32,000 nucleotides of DNA from assembly GCA_964619885.1 (NCBI GenBank), contig CAZUGA010000015.1:59510-91509 (forward strand). The letters run 5' to 3'. Of the stretch, positions 6,375 through 29,728 are shown in pieces. The stretch comes from an uncultured Methylococcaceae bacterium. Lineage in GTDB: Bacteria; Pseudomonadota; Gammaproteobacteria; Methylococcales; UBA1147. The notes beneath the pieces were generated by a model. The model made no database searches. It was not told the DNA's origin and saw only the letters and a program-made list of their open reading frames with translations. How positions within the stretch are numbered: the first letter of the stretch is position 1; the number at the start of each line of letters is the position of its first letter. The translations under genes were made by a program, and so were the position numbers.

Positions 6375-6677
6375 ATGCAACGTAACGCAAAGCTTGAACA
6401 TCCAACCGGCAAAGTCCAAACATTGTTGGATGCGGTAAAACGAAGCCTAGGCGTGACACCCAATTTTTTTACCACCTTAGCTCAGGCGCCAACCGCACTG
6501 GAAGCCTATTTGGGTTTCAACGTCACGCTCAGCGATGCCGTACTACCTTTTTTATTGTTGCCCGAAAACCCGTTCATCTGTGACTACAACTACGGTAACA
6601 TGAGGCTTCGTTATTCTAATCGCAATAGGCGAAATATTATGGATCAATCGCACTGTGACTGGCGGCATAAAAAATGA
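6375..6677 (+). pseudogene. Carboxymuconolactone decarboxylase/AhpD-like gene, apparently truncated or decayed
   Basis: The first ~57 aa (HPTGKVQTLLDAVKRSLGVTPNFFTTLAQAPTALEAYLGFNVTLS) look like the CMD/AhpD family N-terminus. The expected CxxC region reads ICDYNYG, then an unrelated basic tail and a stop at 100 aa, shorter than I expect for this family. Confidence 0.45.
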
Positions 6678-6678
6678 A

Positions 6679-6993
6679 GTGAAGCTAGTTTTGCTCGGTG
6701 CAACAATGATTGTCCTGACGTTGTGTAGCACAAAGTTTTTGCGCACGGAAATGGTGACTGATCCTGAATCGGGTTTGATAGTAGGTAAAGGCTATAAACG
6801 CGTCGACGCCTATTGTACCGGCTGCCATACCGCGGCAATGATAACCAAACACCGGGCAACGCGCACAAACTGGATGGGCATTGTTCGGCGCATGCAAAAA
6901 ATCGGCGAATGGACACTAGACCCCGATATCGAGACAGAAATTGTGGATTATCTATCAATCAATTATCCAGCGAATCACTCCAACCCAAACTAA
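6679..6993 (+). CDS. Small lipoprotein with one c-type haem-binding motif (CxxCH)
   Basis: A GTG start at 6679 gives MKLVLLGATMIVLTLCS (lipobox LTLC). CTGCH motif is present. The track ORF starts at GTG 6655. A terminator follows. Confidence 0.55.
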   Translation: MKLVLLGATMIVLTLCSTKFLRTEMVTDPESGLIVGKGYKRVDAYCTGCHTAAMITKHRATRTNWMGIVRRMQKIGEWTLDPDIETEIVDYLSINYPANHSNPN

Positions 6994-7008
6994 CCTCTCC
7001 GCCCGCAC

Positions 7009-7035
7009 CCGCGAGGCAATTTCGCGGCATTTTGT
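7009..7035 (+). terminator. Rho-independent terminator
   Basis: CCGCGA (7009-7014), 7-nt loop, TCGCGG (7022-7027), then CATTTTGT. Confidence 0.55.
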
Positions 7036-7200
7036 AATAGAGAATCTCTCGACCGCGTGAGTATCCATCAAATTCTACGACTGATTGATTAGGAAATGAA
7101 TTGGTATTGTGTGTACTATTTGTCGCGGAGGCAGTTATACCGCCCCACCCAAAATGCTTTTTAGGTGATTAGATTACTGACAGTTTGACCGATTGATTGA

Positions 7201-10200
7201 ATGACGCCCGAAACCGTTCGCATATTCGTTTCTTCCCCCGATGACGTCAAAGACGAGCGTTCCATCGTAAAAGATATCATTGAACGCCTGCGCATTGAAT
7301 ACGAAGCCTATTTCGAAGTTAACGCTATTCTTTGGGAGAACGAAGCCATCGTCGCCACCGGCGGTTTCCAGGAAGCGCTGGTCGACCCCGGCACTTGTGA
7401 CATTGTACTGGTGATTTTCTGGTCAAAGTTGGGTACGCCGTTACCGCAGAATAAATTCGGCGGTTTAACCGGCACGGAGTGGGAATTTATTAATGCGATA
7501 GAGCACTCGCACGAGTACGAGGGCATTCCCCAAGTCTTGGTTTATCGTAAAGATTCACCGATGTTGGGGAATTTTTTTGACGATGAAGCAGTACGCGAAG
7601 TCAGGGAAGATAAGAATAAGCTGGATAGTTTCTTTAAACAGCATTTCTTCAACCCAGACGGCTCATTCAAGCGGGCGTACAGAACGTTCCAAGACCAAAA
7701 CGAATTCGCCAACCTGGTAGAAACCCAACTACACAAACTGCTCGATGAACGTAAAGGTTCCGAAGGCCTCAAAGTGGTGTGGAAGGATTCACCGTTCCGC
7801 GGCCTGCAACCCTTCGAATTCGAACACCATGCGATTTTTTTCGGTAGGGATCAGGCCAAGCGCTATCTACTACGAAAGCTAGCCAAACAGATTGAACGCG
7901 GCATTGCCTTTGTGATGATCCAAGCAATGAGCGGCAGCGGTAAGTCATCTTTGGTTAAAGCCGGATTGTTGCCGCAACTGACTGCGCCCCGCGTTATCGG
8001 CGATGTAGTTGGTATACGCTGGTGCACGCTACGCCCAAGTGACGGCGAAGACAATCCACTGCGGGCCATAGCGCAAGCGATCATGCGTCCCGACGCATTG
8101 GGTACGGAATTACCGCAATACGGTGTGGATGAGGATTTCATCATGAAAGCTTTGTCCTCTGACCCCGCATTGCTTAAACCCTCGCTGCAAGTCGCGTTGG
8201 AGAAAATTGCCGAAGAACGATATCAGGTTGAAAGCGACGTGGTACGACTGGTTATCGTGGTCGACCAATTTGAAGAATTATTCTCGCAGCGAAAAATTCC
8301 GCTCGAACTGAAACAGCTTTTCGTTCGAAACCTGGATGTATTGGCACGCAGCGGAATGGTTTGGGTTATCGGCACCATGCGCAGCGATTTTTTGCACGAA
8401 ACCGAGGCTTATCCGGAACTGCAAGCGCTGATGGAAAACGACGGTCAGTTCCATTTATTCCCGCCGCGACACGAAGAAATCGAACAGATGATCCGCGAAC
8501 CGGCAAAACTTGCCGGACTGGAATTCGAATCGCGCGACGGGGTCAGCCTGGATGAAACGTTGCTCAAAGACGCAACAAGTCAACAAGGCGCGCTACCGTT
8601 ATTGGAATTTACATTGGATGCACTATACGAACGCCGTGTAGAACGCGAGCTGACCTATGCCGCCTACGAAAGTATCGGCGGATTGGCTGGCGCTGTTGCC
8701 GACCGCGCGGAGAAAGTATTTACCAGGCTACCGGACAATATTCAATCATCTTTATCACCGGTATTCCGGGCTCTAGTCACGATCAACCCCAAAGCTAATG
8801 AAAAAGTAACCGCTCGCCGTGCCGACTGGACCCAATTAGCCAAAGCGCCTGAAAATAAAGCGTTTATCGACGCCTTTATAGACGCGCACCTGCTCGTCTC
8901 GGACCAGGCCAGCGCGCAGGAAAAACAGGTGGTTTGGGTTGCACACGAGGCCTTACTGCGCAACTGGCCGCGGGTTGCCAAGTGGGTAGAATCCAATATT
9001 GAAGATCTTAGAGTTCGCTCCCGCATCGCTGAAGCAACCGCGCTATGGGACAAGGAAGGCCGCAACGACCAGTACCTTCTGCCCGAAGGCAAACCGTTTG
9101 CCGAAGCCACCGACTTATTGAACCGGGTCGGCCAGGAGTTAGAGGAACACGAATGCCAATTTATCGATCTGTCGACGCAACGAATCCGCGCTTCGCGATC
9201 GAGAGAACGGGTTAAGGTCGGTATTGGGATCGCATTATTTGTATTGAGCTTACTGGCAATCGGCGGATTGTATTTCACCTTTAATTTTTCATTACTTGCC
9301 ATGCGCAGTATCGACAACAACCGCCTGGTCAAAGCGGACGAAGCGGTCGATCGTGGCAACACGCCACACGCAATCTCACTTGCTGAAGCGGCTGACATCT
9401 TACCGCGGCAATCCTCGTACGTACTCAGCAGGGCGATTTCCAATAATCACTTGGTCGCAATGATCAAAGTGGAAAACAGTCAGGCCGTGGCCCACCGATT
9501 CGCAGGATTTAACTCAAGTTTGCATCATGCTTTGACCTACTCGCCAATAAATCAAGAGCAAGCCAAACCACTCACATTGTGGCGAATCGCTTCGGGAAAA
9601 CCAATGGGCTACCAATTCAACCGCGGGATGACGCAATGGCCGCAAAAACCTGATTTCCACAACGCGGCCTTTAGCGCAGACGGCCAAACCGTTTTTGCGG
9701 TTGCCGAAAGCGGCGTATGGCAACTTCCAGCCGATGGCTCGGGTGGTGCCTCCAGTCCGGCCTATGCTTGCAAAGCCACATCGGACACAATCATTAAACT
9801 AAGCAACGATGGTCATTGGGCAGCCATCAGCTATGATCGTTTGAATGACGGTAGCTGGCTGTGCCTGATGGATTTACAGCAACCGGGCCGTATCGCGTTT
9901 AACGCCAAACTTCACGACAAGCACATCCGCAGTCTGATGTTTTCACCCGATAGCCGCTTTCTGTCAACCGCCTCCGAAGATTTCAACAGCTGCTTAATGG
10001 CGCTGGATTCCGGGACACTAACAAGTCTGGCACCAACCTGTATCATGATCCCCTACACCCGCATCGTTAACCGGGCGAAATTTAACCGGGCGAGCACACA
10101 ATTGGCAATTGCATCGGTAGACGGAATCAGCCGGATTTTTGACATCAACCCTCCATGTCTGCAACAACTGCGCTCCGAATTCGTTACCAATATATCTGCC

Positions 10201-26344: not shown

Positions 26345-27145
26345 TCAAGTTCCGAATATAAAAACGAAGATCAGATCAATCAGCAAAATAGCCGCAATTG
26401 CACTGATCATCGTCCGCGTTGCAGCTTGAGACACGGCCTCTACATGACGACCGACACGGCAACCGTTAACAGTAGCAATCAATACAATCAAGACCGAAAA
26501 AACTAGGGGCTTTATAATACTGATTAATAAATCACTCGGCTCCAATACATCGCCCAGACTTTCTTGAAATAGGGTCACCGGTATCGCAGCCTGGAACCAC
26601 AACCAGGCTGAAGTAACACTTAAAACGACCAATCCAACCCACACCGCCAGCCCGAAAGACATCAATAACATGGCCAACATCATAGGCCCGACAATATATT
26701 GAATTGGATTCATGCCACTGACGATCAGACCATCAATTTCCCGATTCAATACCATCGACCCAATCCGCACAACCAACGCAATACCGGAACGCCCGGCGAC
26801 AAAAAAACCCACCAATAGGGGTGAGAACTCCTTAATAATAGAAAGCCCTACTCCGCCCAGCAATAATTCCGGAACGTTAACTTTATCCAATACATTTTGA
26901 CTTTGAATCCCAATGATCAATCCTACAACGATGGCGACTAAGGTAATTCTTAGTAGTATTGTCAGACCTGCTTCGCGCAAATCGTCGACAAACATCTTCA
27001 AATCCAACTTGCGGCGCCCGAAAAAAATATCGCGGTACAACCGCAGGCAATCCAGCAATACATAAAACCCCAAGCCGAGATTCTCCAAAAATTTAGTACT
27101 CAAAGGTCCATTCCGTTTGACCTGTGCTAGCATCCACCAATACAC
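26345..27145 (-). CDS. ABC transporter permease (MlaE-like)
   Basis: Collinear by eye with MlaE: IKEFSPLLVGFFVAGRSG..REIDGL..MNPIQYIVGPMMLA..SQAATRTMISAIAAILLIDLIF. The start (27145 or 27133) overlaps the upstream gene by 41-53 nt. Confidence 0.85.
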   Translation of the reverse strand: MYWWMLAQVKRNGPLSTKFLENLGLGFYVLLDCLRLYRDIFFGRRKLDLKMFVDDLREAGLTILLRITLVAIVVGLIIGIQSQNVLDKVNVPELLLGGVGLSIIKEFSPLLVGFFVAGRSGIALVVRIGSMVLNREIDGLIVSGMNPIQYIVGPMMLAMLLMSFGLAVWVGLVVLSVTSAWLWFQAAIPVTLFQESLGDVLEPSDLLISIIKPLVFSVLIVLIATVNGCRVGRHVEAVSQAATRTMISAIAAILLIDLIFVFIFGT

Positions 27146-28916
27146 GTCGGCCTACCGAGGAATATGAATCAACAAATTCGCTAGTCCGCGGCACCTGATA
27201 TTCGACCGGACTATATTCACCCGGGTTGTCCGAGATCACCAGCAAGATTTGAGCACGTTGGTCAACCCACTGAACCCATTCAAGACTATCACGAATAGAA
27301 ATCCGCCGTTCGCTACGCGACAATAGCTGTAAATAATCGCATCGCTCTTCGCTTTGACTAAAATTATTCAATACATCCTGCACTGGACGATGCAATATTA
27401 CCCGTAACCTAAACGAAAACTCCTCGAGCGCGCACCGAGCCAACAGGCGCTGCGCCGGATCTACCAAATCTGAATTCAATACCAAACTTCGATCGGGAAA
27501 TCGCTGTCGCAAGCGCGACAAAATCTTGCCTAGTTGCTCTTTGACATACTGGCCCGGTTTTACCACAGCAGATTCGACAATTGAAACCAGATTTAGGCCA
27601 CGCTTTACCGCCAGTCCCTGCCGACCCAGTAAAGCCGGGACTAATCTTACCGCATATCGATCCAAATCTTTCATATCGTCAGTCAGATCGTCGTACGCTA
27701 TCAATTCAGGGTGAATCTTAGCCGTATTGTCGCGCTCTGGACCGTATTGCCAACCGTCCAGATAACGATCAGCACACCAACGGTCATGTTCAATTATCGA
27801 CAGATGTTCCGCTTCACTCGCGGTAAACGCGAAAAAGTCAGACTCTCGTTCGTGCACGATAAAACTATCTATACTAGCCAGTTTCCCAGGCACATGATCG
27901 GCTTGGTGTCTAGACGCCTGTTTGTAGGATTCATATAGATTCTCCCAACTTTCACCGGCCGGGGTCCCGTCCAATGAACGCCCTTGAGCAGCAATACTAT
28001 CCCGATAATAATCATGAATAATCGAGGCTAAAGCATCACCGTGAAAACCAAACAGAACATCCGGGACGCATACGTCACGCACCGCCGAAAATGGAAAACT
28101 CACGCCATCCCAATCGCTGATTGGTACTGCACGATCGAATCCACTTAGATTCATAAAAATCGGCGGACTGCTATGTTGCTCGCGCCGCAGCCGCTCCCGA
28201 ATATCGGCGGCGCTATCGACAGTTGCTTGGTCGGACGCTTCGCATACATAAACGGATGTATATGGCTGCTCTGGGTCCGGAATCAACTGTGTGCGATTTG
28301 TAAAACGAATTTGGGCAACATTCTGTACTTGGGGAAAAGTCTGAAAAAATGCAGATTCGCATCGTTCCGGTTCAGAATCAACTACCGTGATAATAGGTTT
28401 TTTTATTCTGTATTGGGCCAACCGCATGGCGTGAACGGCAATCGCCTGACCAAGTTCTGCAAAGCCGATTATCAACAAGTTAATCGTCTGACCAAAGACT
28501 ACATCGGCCGCTAGATGTAACGGAAATCTACTAAGCAGTAAACGCGCAGCCCGACTCGGTAGGGATAAACTTCGCAATACAACGGTAGGTCCCAATTTCT
28601 GTTGCCAGCGATTACCTTCATCGATCGCAGGCAACAAAGTTTGGCTCAACAAACTGATATTAATTGGGCTACTTTTACGGCGACCAACCTTGCCCATCAA
28701 ACCGCAATACGTATCAAGAATCTTATCGATTTGTTCTGGCTGATCGCTTAAAACAACCAAGCCGTACAAGTTATTGAAATCAACCGCACGCGCACTCGAG
28801 ATGTCCGACAAAACCGAAACATGGCTACCCCAAGTTTTGAATGCAGCTTCAATTTGTTCGAAACCGGAGCCGTTAAAGACCAGTATTCTGTTATTTCTAG
28901 AACTTACCCCAAACAT
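27093..28916 (-). CDS. Multidomain protein: N-terminal alpha/beta domain, Rossmann-like (TrkA-N-like) domain, RyR domain and C-terminal uncharacterised domain
   Basis: LLIIGFAELGQAIAVHA is a Rossmann G-rich loop. EHDRWCADRYLDGWQYGPERDNTAKIHPELIAYDDLTDDMKDLDRYAV matches the bacterial RyR-domain pattern (W..ER...GW.YGP.RD...K.HP.L..Y..L....K..DR). Confidence 0.7.
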   Translation of the reverse strand: MFGVSSRNNRILVFNGSGFEQIEAAFKTWGSHVSVLSDISSARAVDFNNLYGLVVLSDQPEQIDKILDTYCGLMGKVGRRKSSPINISLLSQTLLPAIDEGNRWQQKLGPTVVLRSLSLPSRAARLLLSRFPLHLAADVVFGQTINLLIIGFAELGQAIAVHAMRLAQYRIKKPIITVVDSEPERCESAFFQTFPQVQNVAQIRFTNRTQLIPDPEQPYTSVYVCEASDQATVDSAADIRERLRREQHSSPPIFMNLSGFDRAVPISDWDGVSFPFSAVRDVCVPDVLFGFHGDALASIIHDYYRDSIAAQGRSLDGTPAGESWENLYESYKQASRHQADHVPGKLASIDSFIVHERESDFFAFTASEAEHLSIIEHDRWCADRYLDGWQYGPERDNTAKIHPELIAYDDLTDDMKDLDRYAVRLVPALLGRQGLAVKRGLNLVSIVESAVVKPGQYVKEQLGKILSRLRQRFPDRSLVLNSDLVDPAQRLLARCALEEFSFRLRVILHRPVQDVLNNFSQSEERCDYLQLLSRSERRISIRDSLEWVQWVDQRAQILLVISDNPGEYSPVEYQVPRTSEFVDSYSSVGRRVLVDASTGQTEWTFEY

Positions 28917-28927
28917 CTAGTCGTAGC

Positions 28928-29728
28928 TCAACCTTTTAATAAACTGCGAATCGATGATTCGAATTTCACTCGACTATCTTTAATGCTGACCGTCTGAACG
29001 TATCCCGAAGCCGCAAGACTCTCCGCTCTAGCATCGGTACGCTTACCTTTAAGAGTTACAGCCAAACAATCGGCAGCGCGACCGCTACCCGAAACAACCA
29101 ACGCAACCCGTTTTTGATTGACGCTGCACGACACATCCGACCAAGTGATCTCTCCTCCATTGACAACCAGGGTTAGCGATCCAAACCCGTCTGATAATGC
29201 ACTGCCAATTTGCGCCATCCACGGAGACTCATCACCCCAGTCGTTGCCTGGCACCAAAATAAAATGGCTATGATTACAGGCCAATGTAGGTATTTCAGTT
29301 GGGATCGCGGACCGACCTGGTTCTATAATAGTCCCGATCGCAGCTACCCCGAGTAGCGGAAAGTCACCGTTAATCTTCTGCCGGGCAATACCGATGCACC
29401 GCATCACGCCAGTATTTGTGCCCCCATCAATTACGCTGGCGCCTAACGATTGAGCAGCCGGAGCCACCACATCACTAAAAAAACCCTGTAAACGTTTCGC
29501 ATCGATTTCGGAAACCATGCCAGCCCCACCAACCAACACGATGACCGGTGCTTTGGCCATTCCTAAACAAAGCAGCGCTTGCGGAATGTCTGCGTAGGTA
29601 TCAACACTGGTTGCATTGGCGATATTACCACCTGCTACCGTGCATTTAAAACAACGTAGGATCGTATTTTTGCCAAAATCCATAGGGTATAAATTCTGCC
29701 AACCGCCATTACTTTCAGTGAAATACAA
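28928..29728 (-). CDS. SLOG-superfamily protein of the TRPM-associated (LSDAT-like) type
   Basis: APVIVLVGGAGMVSE (GGxG loop), VIDGGTNTGVM, and VALVVSGSGRAADCLA. The last closely resembles the xVVxEGSGRxADVIA motif of TRPM channel N-terminal SLOG domains. Start uncertain (TTG 29728 or ATG 29683). Confidence 0.65.
   Translation of the reverse strand: MYFTESNGGWQNLYPMDFGKNTILRCFKCTVAGGNIANATSVDTYADIPQALLCLGMAKAPVIVLVGGAGMVSEIDAKRLQGFFSDVVAPAAQSLGASVIDGGTNTGVMRCIGIARQKINGDFPLLGVAAIGTIIEPGRSAIPTEIPTLACNHSHFILVPGNDWGDESPWMAQIGSALSDGFGSLTLVVNGGEITWSDVSCSVNQKRVALVVSGSGRAADCLAVTLKGKRTDARAESLAASGYVQTVSIKDSRVKFESSIRSLLKG

Follow-up and report, generated by a model that had tools for sequence, protein, structure and literature searches.

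A STAND NTPase gene encoding a TIR-like domain, a predicted membrane-spanning helix and WD40 propellers, and the conservation of the helix in the nSTAND1 family

STAND NTPases act by nucleotide-dependent oligomerisation, which brings their effector domains together. To our knowledge, all the STAND and NLR proteins of known mechanism sense in the cytoplasm, where the sensor folds back on the ATPase and keeps the protein off. A gene in a 32,000-nucleotide stretch of contig CAZUGA010000015.1, from an uncultured Methylococcaceae bacterium, raises the question of whether such a switch could instead be operated from across a membrane. The whole stretch is called the window here, and positions are given within it. 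The gene (7201..11913) encodes, in order, a DUF4062-like domain, an nSTAND1 NTPase, a predicted membrane helix and tandem WD40 propellers. A first-pass annotation, made from the sequence alone, had placed the WD40 region in the periplasm and the NTPase and effector in the cytoplasm, and this placement is supported, as a prediction, by our finding that both the helix and the charge bias around it are conserved. With a conserved positive-inside helix between them, the sensor repeats are predicted to sit in a different compartment from the NTPase.

Domain architecture of the protein

The central part of the protein matches the Pfam family nSTAND1 (PF20703) over profile positions 1-378 of 379, with E = 8.4e-97 and a score of 325.6 bits, where the cut-off is 27.1. 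Walker A and Walker B motifs are both present (Table 1), so this NTPase is not an inactive ‘iSTAND’. The nSTAND-type assignment made at first pass is confirmed by these data, which include the search with nSTAND hidden Markov models (HMMs) that had been proposed as a check. Between the NTPase and the helix runs a helical linker with the consensus ‘LLLPxGxPLxEAxxLLxR...FIxxS’ in alignment A2, in which S658 is invariant. This linker (aa 624-660) is conserved across the family, which points to mechanical coupling of the helix to the NTPase and speaks against a loose tether.

When the whole protein was searched, no NACHT was found among the 25 Pfam families listed of the 40 matched, and NCBIfam gave no match. 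The PADLOC matches comprised HEAT-ARM_XIII in the WD40 region, the defence candidate PDC-S60 at the N-terminus (aa 6-174) and a weak mad8, and nothing else; no Avs or NACHT-type model of PADLOC matches the whole protein. Judged by these sequence tests of membership, the protein belongs to nSTAND1 and is a borderline but family-supported member of DUF4062, and falls outside Swarozyc, Evangelion, Avs and bNACHT.

The N-terminal domain is the predicted effector. The first-pass annotation had recognised a DUF4062/TIR-like signature there, with a conserved acidic motif, GTEWEF, at the place where related domains carry a catalytic Glu. We see a borderline match to Pfam DUF4062 (PF13271) at aa 7-99, with E = 2.6e-5 and 24.7-24.8 bits for a gathering cut-off of 24.7. 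This marginal match of a single sequence gains weight because 15 of 23 aligned homologous domains also match DUF4062 (best E = 4.9e-7); no other family is matched by any of them. When aa 1-197 were searched with phmmer, essentially all of the best 120 relatives proved to carry this domain at their N-terminus, at E-values from 1e-27 to 1e-56, while one truncated relative matches at 6e-19. In the alignment of N-terminal domains, G91, T92 and E95 of the acidic motif are invariant, and E93 is kept in at least 90%. The earlier reading of a DUF4062 domain with a conserved acidic motif is supported.

An AlphaFold2 model of aa 1-200, with a predicted local distance difference test (pLDDT) score of 90.2, is five-stranded and has the alternating beta-alpha order expected for a TIR/flavodoxin-like domain. 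It places E93 and E95 at the start (N-cap) of helix 91-105, the third main helix, at the end of the Pfam match. Experiments have since shown DUF4062 to be a TIR-like domain that hydrolyses nicotinamide adenine dinucleotide (NAD+), in other words an NADase, with a catalytic Glu that is E97 in KpSwz and E1008 in TEP1 (bioRxiv 10.64898/2026.05.01.722283). The invariant E95 is a candidate for the catalytic Glu of the present protein. A Foldseek comparison of the model with the PDB gave flavin mononucleotide (FMN) reductases first, and weak matches to TIR-STING (7un8, E = 2.5e-3) and to the TIR domain of SPARTA (8qlp, E = 7.6e-3). As these are only generic flavodoxin-like and weak TIR matches, the Foldseek result was rejected as proof of a TIR fold. 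The N-terminus (MTPETVRIFVSSPDD) contains no hydrophobic stretch and hence no signal peptide, as had been stated at first pass.

The C-terminal region had been described as two WD40 propellers, and this description is borne out. Pfam recognises at least ten WD40 stretches above its threshold, and degenerate blades can be followed back to about aa 820. In an AlphaFold2 model of aa 702-1570 (mean pLDDT 76; predicted template modelling score, pTM, 0.58), aa 751-1516 are all-beta, with about 63 strands in 15-16 blades. The top Foldseek matches to this model are all tandem propellers, aligned over 690-860 columns, and include the 14-blade Nostoc protein 2ymu (E = 9e-37), Aip1, UTP/WDR3-type proteins and Apaf-1, the last with the best query-normalised TM-score, 0.40. 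The juxtamembrane segment that precedes the propellers (aa 702-750) can be aligned with the protein P0180. The closest relative of the full architecture, at 33% identity, comes from a Thiohalocapsa metagenome-assembled genome.

The closest relative of the propellers as such is P0124, from locus L089 (1-10680), which is 60% identical to those of the query. It is a remnant of 559 aa that covers only the last 555 residues, and it is preceded by an open reading frame (ORF) with DUF4372 that may come from an insertion element.

The predicted membrane helix and the probable orientation of the protein

The query has one strongly hydrophobic stretch, with a core at aa 673-694 that reaches aa 701. Its maximum on the Kyte-Doolittle scale, for a 19-residue window, is 2.29, and the second-best window in the protein scores 1.31. 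Six Lys/Arg residues lie in the 15-residue flank on the N-side of the helix, against two in the C-flank. The hydrophobic peak of this single sequence was dropped as evidence, because 136 of 2000 whole-protein shuffles (6.8%) reach the same value. The helix is believed instead because it is conserved in position and charge across homologues.

A search with aa 1-760 returned 2226 proteins. In about 115 of the best 120, a single hydrophobic segment comes right behind the NTPase, at aa 670-740, whatever domain follows it, so that a helix stands at the equivalent place in about 95% of the proteins with the same N-terminal module. Measured in 114 relatives, the hydrophobic run has a median length of 23 residues (range 19-31), and the mean number of Lys/Arg residues is 5.8 in the 15-residue N-flank and 2.1 in the C-flank. 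Lys/Arg residues are more numerous on the N-side in 111 of the 114 proteins, equal on both sides in one, and more numerous on the C-side in two. The same arrangement is seen in distant proteins: among 82 nSTAND1 ORFs from 80 species genomes of about a dozen phyla, in which the best match to the query is only 41% identical, 70 carry one such segment and no more, at 40-90 residues beyond the NTPase. Among these 70 are some proteins with an N-terminal kinase or caspase domain in place of the TIR-like domain. Finally, an exhaustive HMMER search with aa 1-721 against 1.84 billion representatives gave 9,203 representatives at E <= 1e-30 and 40,427 at E <= 1e-3. The helix was found at a strict threshold in 112 of 135 further top representatives, and most of the other 23 have the same poly-Arg and Ala/Gly-rich run with a lower score.

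These comparisons indicate that the helix and its charge asymmetry are a family trait, and that the query locus is one unremarkable member among a great many in the family, its layout being the family norm and not a peculiarity. The single helix with a positive-inside cue noted at first pass is thus corroborated well beyond the query, by a survey of the kind that had been suggested for the membrane-spanning variant. The accompanying remark that a membrane-spanning STAND protein would be unusual holds for characterised STAND proteins, but within nSTAND1 the arrangement is ordinary. The family is centred on lineages of soil and sediment and on filamentous or social ones (Actinobacteria, Chloroflexi, cyanobacteria and Myxococcota), and a trend of such conflict systems towards these lineages has been described by Kaur et al.

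A single span places the two ends of a protein on opposite sides of the membrane. The NTPase and TIR-like parts are predicted to be cytoplasmic because an ATPase needs ATP, an NADase needs NAD+, and there is no signal peptide; the Lys/Arg bias is in agreement. The contig of the query encodes an Mla-type lipid transport system, which indicates an outer membrane in the host, and with it a periplasm.

Relatives of the protein lend further support to an external C-terminus. Their N-terminal module of about 700 residues is constant while the C-terminal part is exchanged freely: the domains found after the helix are FGE-sulfatase (about 45 relatives), TPR (about 33), WD40 (11), CHASE2 (5) and caspase-like (5), and there are also a Vgb-lyase-type propeller and multi-span regions. 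In P0011 and the four other CHASE2 relatives, the helix falls on the first membrane helix of the CHASE2 domain; in P0011 that domain is matched over aa 699-966, and its usual C-terminal membrane helices come after the match. CHASE2 is an established extracytoplasmic sensor, and the shared helix thus argues for an external C-terminus. The nearest WD40 arrays to those of the query occur in other nSTAND1 proteins and in Ser/Thr kinases, and 101 of the 120 proteins with the nearest arrays have exactly one membrane helix, always N-terminal to the array. WD40 arrays behind a single helix are the layout of receptor kinases, which points the same way. Support also comes from two TPR-type relatives of different lineages, which are immediately followed by a gene for a Peptidase_C14 protein of about 710 aa (L005 9928-12078; L007 9597-11729). 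The two peptidases are 52% identical and both begin with a signal-peptide-like N-terminus, suggesting that they are periplasmic protease partners of the neighbouring STAND proteins.

In the query, 12 Cys residues lie on the C-side of the helix and 3 on the N-side. The ectodomain Cys residues of the query clade are kept beyond background, in 6 of 6 positions at 60% identity and in 5 of 10 at 33% identity. This conservation is suggestive, and would fit disulfides.

The hydrophobic run could also be a mere tether, or a re-entrant (monotopic) segment, with cytoplasmic WD40 repeats that fold back on the NTPase in the manner of Apaf-1. In favour of this reading, the STAND and NLR proteins so far characterised all sense in the cytoplasm, the WD40 arrays of well-studied systems are mostly found there too, and no structure gave a higher query-normalised TM-score than Apaf-1. 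In the query itself the hydrophobic run is 29-31 residues long and has GG mid-run. A few relatives without the helix also keep their WD40 repeats, an example being that at L053. In the literature, a 2026 Nature survey presents prokaryotic STANDs as intracellular sensors, and the word ‘membrane’ does not occur in it. Against this stands the length of the run in the family as a whole, which is too short for a hairpin, and the one-sided Lys/Arg bias, which is that of a signal anchor and not of a peripheral tether. The use of the same helix in the CHASE2 fusions, and the signal-peptide-bearing caspase-like partners of two relatives, are likewise at odds with a cytoplasmic C-terminus. We regard the tethered, cytoplasmic arrangement as quite improbable, and consider with good confidence that the protein has the architecture and orientation of a type-II (N in, C out) single-pass protein of the inner membrane.

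A possible signalling mechanism and its precedents

With this orientation, the protein may work as a type-II membrane STAND receptor that converts an envelope cue, through oligomerisation of the ATPase, into depletion of NAD+. We would place this chain of events, taken whole, slightly on the favourable side of even. Its steps are drawn from the anatomy of the protein and from the workings of related proteins. At rest, the receptors would be monomeric in the membrane and their TIR-like domains inactive. An envelope ligand would bind or cross-link the periplasmic propellers; this ligand might be a phage tail or ejection protein, a product of lysis or envelope damage, or a molecule from a competitor or neighbour. 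Clustering of receptors, or a change relayed through the linker-helix unit, would then lead to nucleotide exchange in nSTAND1 and to oligomerisation at the inner membrane face. The TIR-like domains, packed together, would hydrolyse NAD+ through Glu95, and the loss of NAD+ would bring about cell arrest or death, as in abortive infection.

Some features of related proteins bear on these steps. KpSwz becomes active when it assembles with a phage portal, and the TIR-like domain of TEP1 gains specific activity as its concentration rises (bioRxiv 10.64898/2026.05.01.722283). Evangelion is a second DUF4062 family that acts in phage defence. Links to conflict systems are also seen in the PDC-S60 match and in the surroundings of relatives, one of which lies near a Mu-like prophage and a PIN toxin-antitoxin pair, while another, at L089, lies in an island with a reverse transcriptase and a TIR_2-NACHT-FGE-sulfatase gene. 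The latter gene looks like the target of a diversity-generating retroelement.

Relatives have other neighbours as well. A TPR-S/MAP3K_TRAF_bd gene adjoins relatives in four loci (L002 6148-7881, L003 5964-7784, L004 2807-7529 and L089 6426-7811). The TPR-S protein has a weak Guanylate_cyc match in L002 and L003, and separate Guanylate_cyc fragments lie near it in L004; the proteins of these three loci are mutually 44-49% identical. This TPR-S/cyclase protein may be a recurrent partner; a tblastn search found it absent from the window, as are all the varied partner genes of the relatives. At L005, a TrkA_N+RyR protein is encoded directly upstream of the nSTAND1 gene and matches positions 27600-28091 of the window at 30% identity. 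This match is weak and lies 15 kb from the query gene, and was not treated as linkage.

The cyclase and TPR-S neighbours suggest signalling, and so favour an alternative in which the same architecture and topology form a receptor that answers to non-viral cues, for instance in the recognition of kin or neighbours or in the sensing of envelope stress, predators or competitor toxins. NAD+ turnover or an NAD-derived signal would then shift physiology or induce dormancy, with no anti-phage suicide. The concentration of the family in soil, sediment and filamentous or social lineages is in keeping with this, as is the fact that its ectodomains are common to receptor Ser/Thr kinases, which are ordinary signalling proteins. 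PADLOC also matches none of the nine neighbouring proteins scanned around the query. On the other side, both DUF4062 families that have been tested are phage defences acting via NAD+ depletion, a variable sensor on a constant module is a hallmark of arms-race receptors, and the N-terminal domain matches a PADLOC defence candidate. In the light of these points, a purely non-viral role seems unlikely to us.

The secreted-looking Peptidase_C14 genes directly downstream of the relatives in L005 and L007 raise another alternative, in which the topology is as predicted and activation occurs by regulated proteolysis. A periplasmic cut followed by an intramembrane cut would free the TIR-like/nSTAND1 module, which would oligomerise in the cytosol, as with anti-sigma factors. 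A caspase-like segment is found within the ectodomain of five relatives, and membrane-spanning anti-sigma factors such as DdvA are reported to control defence loci. No protease gene adjoins the query, however, most relatives are without such a protease neighbour, and no cleavage motif was identified in the analysis. We give activation by proteolysis only a slight chance.

Several observations, in addition to the shuffled sequences described above, weigh against the envelope receptor that we prefer. The DUF4062 score of the query sits exactly at the gathering cut-off. In the Foldseek comparison of the N-terminal domain, the TM-scores of the TIR matches are only about 0.3-0.35 and flavodoxin-like reductases outrank TIR domains; neither a whole-sequence search nor a profile of the N-terminal alignment gave a usable match to a PDB structure. 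Cys is not enriched on the C-side of the helix across the family (0.48%, against 0.83% on the N-side), and Cys enrichment was discarded as a general marker of export, leaving the positional conservation in the query clade as the suggestive part. A few relatives are without the helix, and the one at L053 keeps its WD40 repeats all the same. Two others, P0056 (924 aa) and P0304 (916 aa), have a second TIR-like domain after the NTPase in place of the helix, at aa 730-910 in P0056; these are natural helix-less variants and useful for comparison. The PADLOC result for the neighbouring proteins counts here as well, and no conserved partner gene was found near the query. Lastly, a sensor across the membrane makes autoinhibition by fold-back impossible, so the ‘off’ state would have to be held otherwise than in Apaf-1.

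The proposed receptor can be compared with several known systems. Apaf-1 and the NLR switches have the same order of effector, NTPase and repeat sensor, and in Apaf-1 too a tandem WD40 propeller is the presumed sensor. They differ in the NTPase, which in the query belongs to the nSTAND1 clade and not to AP-ATPase or NACHT, and in the effector, predicted to be an enzyme in the query and not a CARD adaptor; the fold-back of Apaf-1 would not be possible for the query, in which the predicted membrane helix parts the NTPase from the sensor. TEP1, NWD1, NWD2 and bacterial ‘TEP1-like’ proteins also combine DUF4062, a STAND NTPase and WD40 repeats, and the DUF4062 domain of TEP1 is an active NADase with a catalytic Glu. 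All of these contain NACHT and are soluble, with no membrane helix, whereas the query has nSTAND1, a helix and a DUF4062 domain at the cut-off.

KpSwz (Swarozyc) and Eva01 (Evangelion) share the DUF4062 effector with its conserved Glu, and deplete NAD+ once their sensor region is engaged. They consist of DUF4062 and an auxiliary (stalk/AUX) region, without STAND NTPase, helix or WD40 repeats, and KpSwz senses the phage portal in the cytoplasm, where the sensor of the query is predicted to lie outside. Avs and bNACHT proteins follow the same single-polypeptide logic of effector, STAND NTPase and variable sensor. They are cytosolic and mostly use TPR-like sensors for intracellular phage proteins, and, as described above, their PADLOC models do not match the query.

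Toll-like receptors have a repeat ectodomain, one membrane helix and a cytoplasmic TIR domain. They share with the predicted layout of the query the outside repeat sensor, the single helix and the inside TIR-type domain, and clustering driven by a ligand is a natural model for its activation. They are type I proteins with leucine-rich repeats, in contrast to the type II query with its WD40 repeats and an ATPase between helix and TIR-like domain, and we found no evidence of common descent of the whole architecture. Receptor Ser/Thr kinases of the PknB type, with WD40 or PASTA ectodomains, contain the nearest WD40 arrays, likewise behind a single helix, but their output is a kinase and not a TIR-like domain with a STAND module.

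The only explicit precedent that we found for a STAND protein with a predicted periplasmic sensor is a target of the diversity-generating retroelement of Thiohalocapsa PB-PSB1, a NACHT-CLec protein (Dore et al. 2024). It differs from the query in having a NACHT NTPase and a C-type-lectin sensor, and in being diversified by a retroelement. The same paper calls its nSTAND1 targets cytoplasmic, and nSTAND1 was defined without mention of a membrane segment in the text (Kaur et al. 2021). In the literature searched, as text only, we found no discussion of a membrane helix in nSTAND1 proteins, though architecture cartoons may show one, and no paper that takes up membrane-spanning STAND receptors, so far uncharacterised, as a class.

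Extended to the whole nSTAND1 clade, of which this gene would be a typical WD40 member, the proposal would describe membrane-spanning, NLR-like receptors that serve bacteria in pattern recognition and watch the periplasm or cell surface, not the cytoplasm. A single helix would connect their outside sensor with an oligomerisation switch driven by ATP and with a TIR-like NADase, so that in function they would combine Toll-like with NOD-like receptors. We offer this as a tentative and somewhat doubtful generalisation. If it were true, a STAND clade with the sensor outside would extend NLR-type immunity to the cell envelope and would require control of the STAND switch without autoinhibition by fold-back, and bacteria might have a means of noticing invaders or envelope damage no later than entry. 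The present gene is a convenient test case, being a stand-alone single polypeptide with an easily measured predicted output, the loss of NAD+, and it forms a connection between bacterial proteins and TEP1 and NWD1, the DUF4062-NACHT-WD40 proteins of animals. The family-wide point can be read from public sequences, so the value lies in recognising and testing it, and not in the uniqueness of the locus.

The locus and other features of the window

The features of the gene and of the region directly upstream are collected in Table 1.

Table 1. Features of the STAND gene and its upstream region, in window coordinates.
Feature	Residues (aa)	Position	Strand	Remarks
Two small overlapping ORFs (100 aa; 112 aa)		6375-6993	+	Upstream of gene; no Pfam match
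Terminator-like hairpin and weak T tract		7009..7037 (hairpin 7009-7027)	+	Upstream of gene
Complete ORF, 1570 aa and stop	1-1570	7201..11913	+	ATG start; uninterrupted
TIR-like (divergent DUF4062) domain	1-190	7201..7770	+	Predicted cytoplasmic NADase effector
GTEWEF motif	91-96	7471..7488	+	From alignment A1 of N-terminal domains
nSTAND1 STAND NTPase module	198-623	7792..9069	+	Pfam PF20703
Walker A, AMSGSGKSS	241-249	7921..7947	+	G245, G247, K248, S249 invariant in alignment A2
Walker B, VIVVDQFEE	351-359	8251..8277	+	D355, Q356, E358, E359 invariant in alignment A2
Conserved helical linker between NTPase and membrane, ‘LLPEGKPFAEATDLL...FIDLS’	624-660	9070..9180	+	
Arg/Lys-rich flank, RIRASRSRERVK	661-672	9181..9216	+	Predicted cytoplasmic
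Predicted single membrane-spanning helix	673-701	9217..9303	+	Signal anchor, N-terminus inside
Juxtamembrane segment	702-750	9304..9450	+	Helices modelled at low confidence; pLDDT 33-42, model residues 1-48
Tandem WD40 beta-propellers, about 15-16 blades	751-1516	9451..11748	+	Predicted extracytoplasmic sensor; 12 Cys
C-terminal tail	1517-1570	11749..11910	+	Short helices, low confidence; tail conserved in P0124

Homologues start 3-6 residues ahead of a conserved ‘RIFISSP’, and the start codon of the query fits this. An identical protein is encoded by five metagenome contigs, the longest of which is ENA ERZ27249630 k141_831010 (91.7 kb), and the 90%-identity cluster of the protein has three members of 1570-1571 aa. 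The G+C content is 0.50-0.53 in the gene (7001-12000 of the window), compared with 0.44-0.48 in the flanking kilobases and 0.38-0.43 farther downstream. The raised G+C of the gene would fit horizontal acquisition.

The gene had been described at first pass as stand-alone, preceded by a terminator and converging on rtcB. Its neighbourhood agrees with the first and last of these points: there are no operon partners, a divergent TetR gene and a CHAD-domain gene lie upstream, and the convergent rtcB and a PcfJ-like gene lie downstream. For the terminator the picture is mixed, since a hairpin is indeed present upstream but such terminator-like sites are no commoner than expected from shuffled sequence (2 found, 1.5 expected). 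If active, the hairpin would terminate the two small ORFs on the same strand. These ORFs were considered as operon partners and rejected, as they look unrelated to the gene and the hairpin lies between. By eye, the 100-aa ORF, which adjoins the divergent TetR gene, resembles a truncated AhpD/carboxymuconolactone-decarboxylase-like protein, and the product of the 112-aa ORF combines a hydrophobic N-terminus with a haem-binding CXXCH motif. The PcfJ-like gene is at 13515-14954, and its family is known from conjugative elements.

Three further observations concern more distant parts of the window. At 27093-29728 (-), adjacent genes encode a 607-aa RyR-domain protein and a 266-aa SLOG/LSDAT_prok protein, neither of which has a PADLOC match; the pair resembles an independent module of two genes for nucleotide sensing or conflict. 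Between genes, at 20345-20519 and 20965-21140, stands an AT-rich direct repeat of about 175 nt with a spacing of 620 nt, and the two copies are 94% and 82% identical over two segments. At 17662-19957 (-) there are two adjacent genes whose products both end with a rhodanese domain, one combining it with a methyl-accepting chemotaxis protein (MCP) signalling domain and the other with a metallo-beta-lactamase fold.

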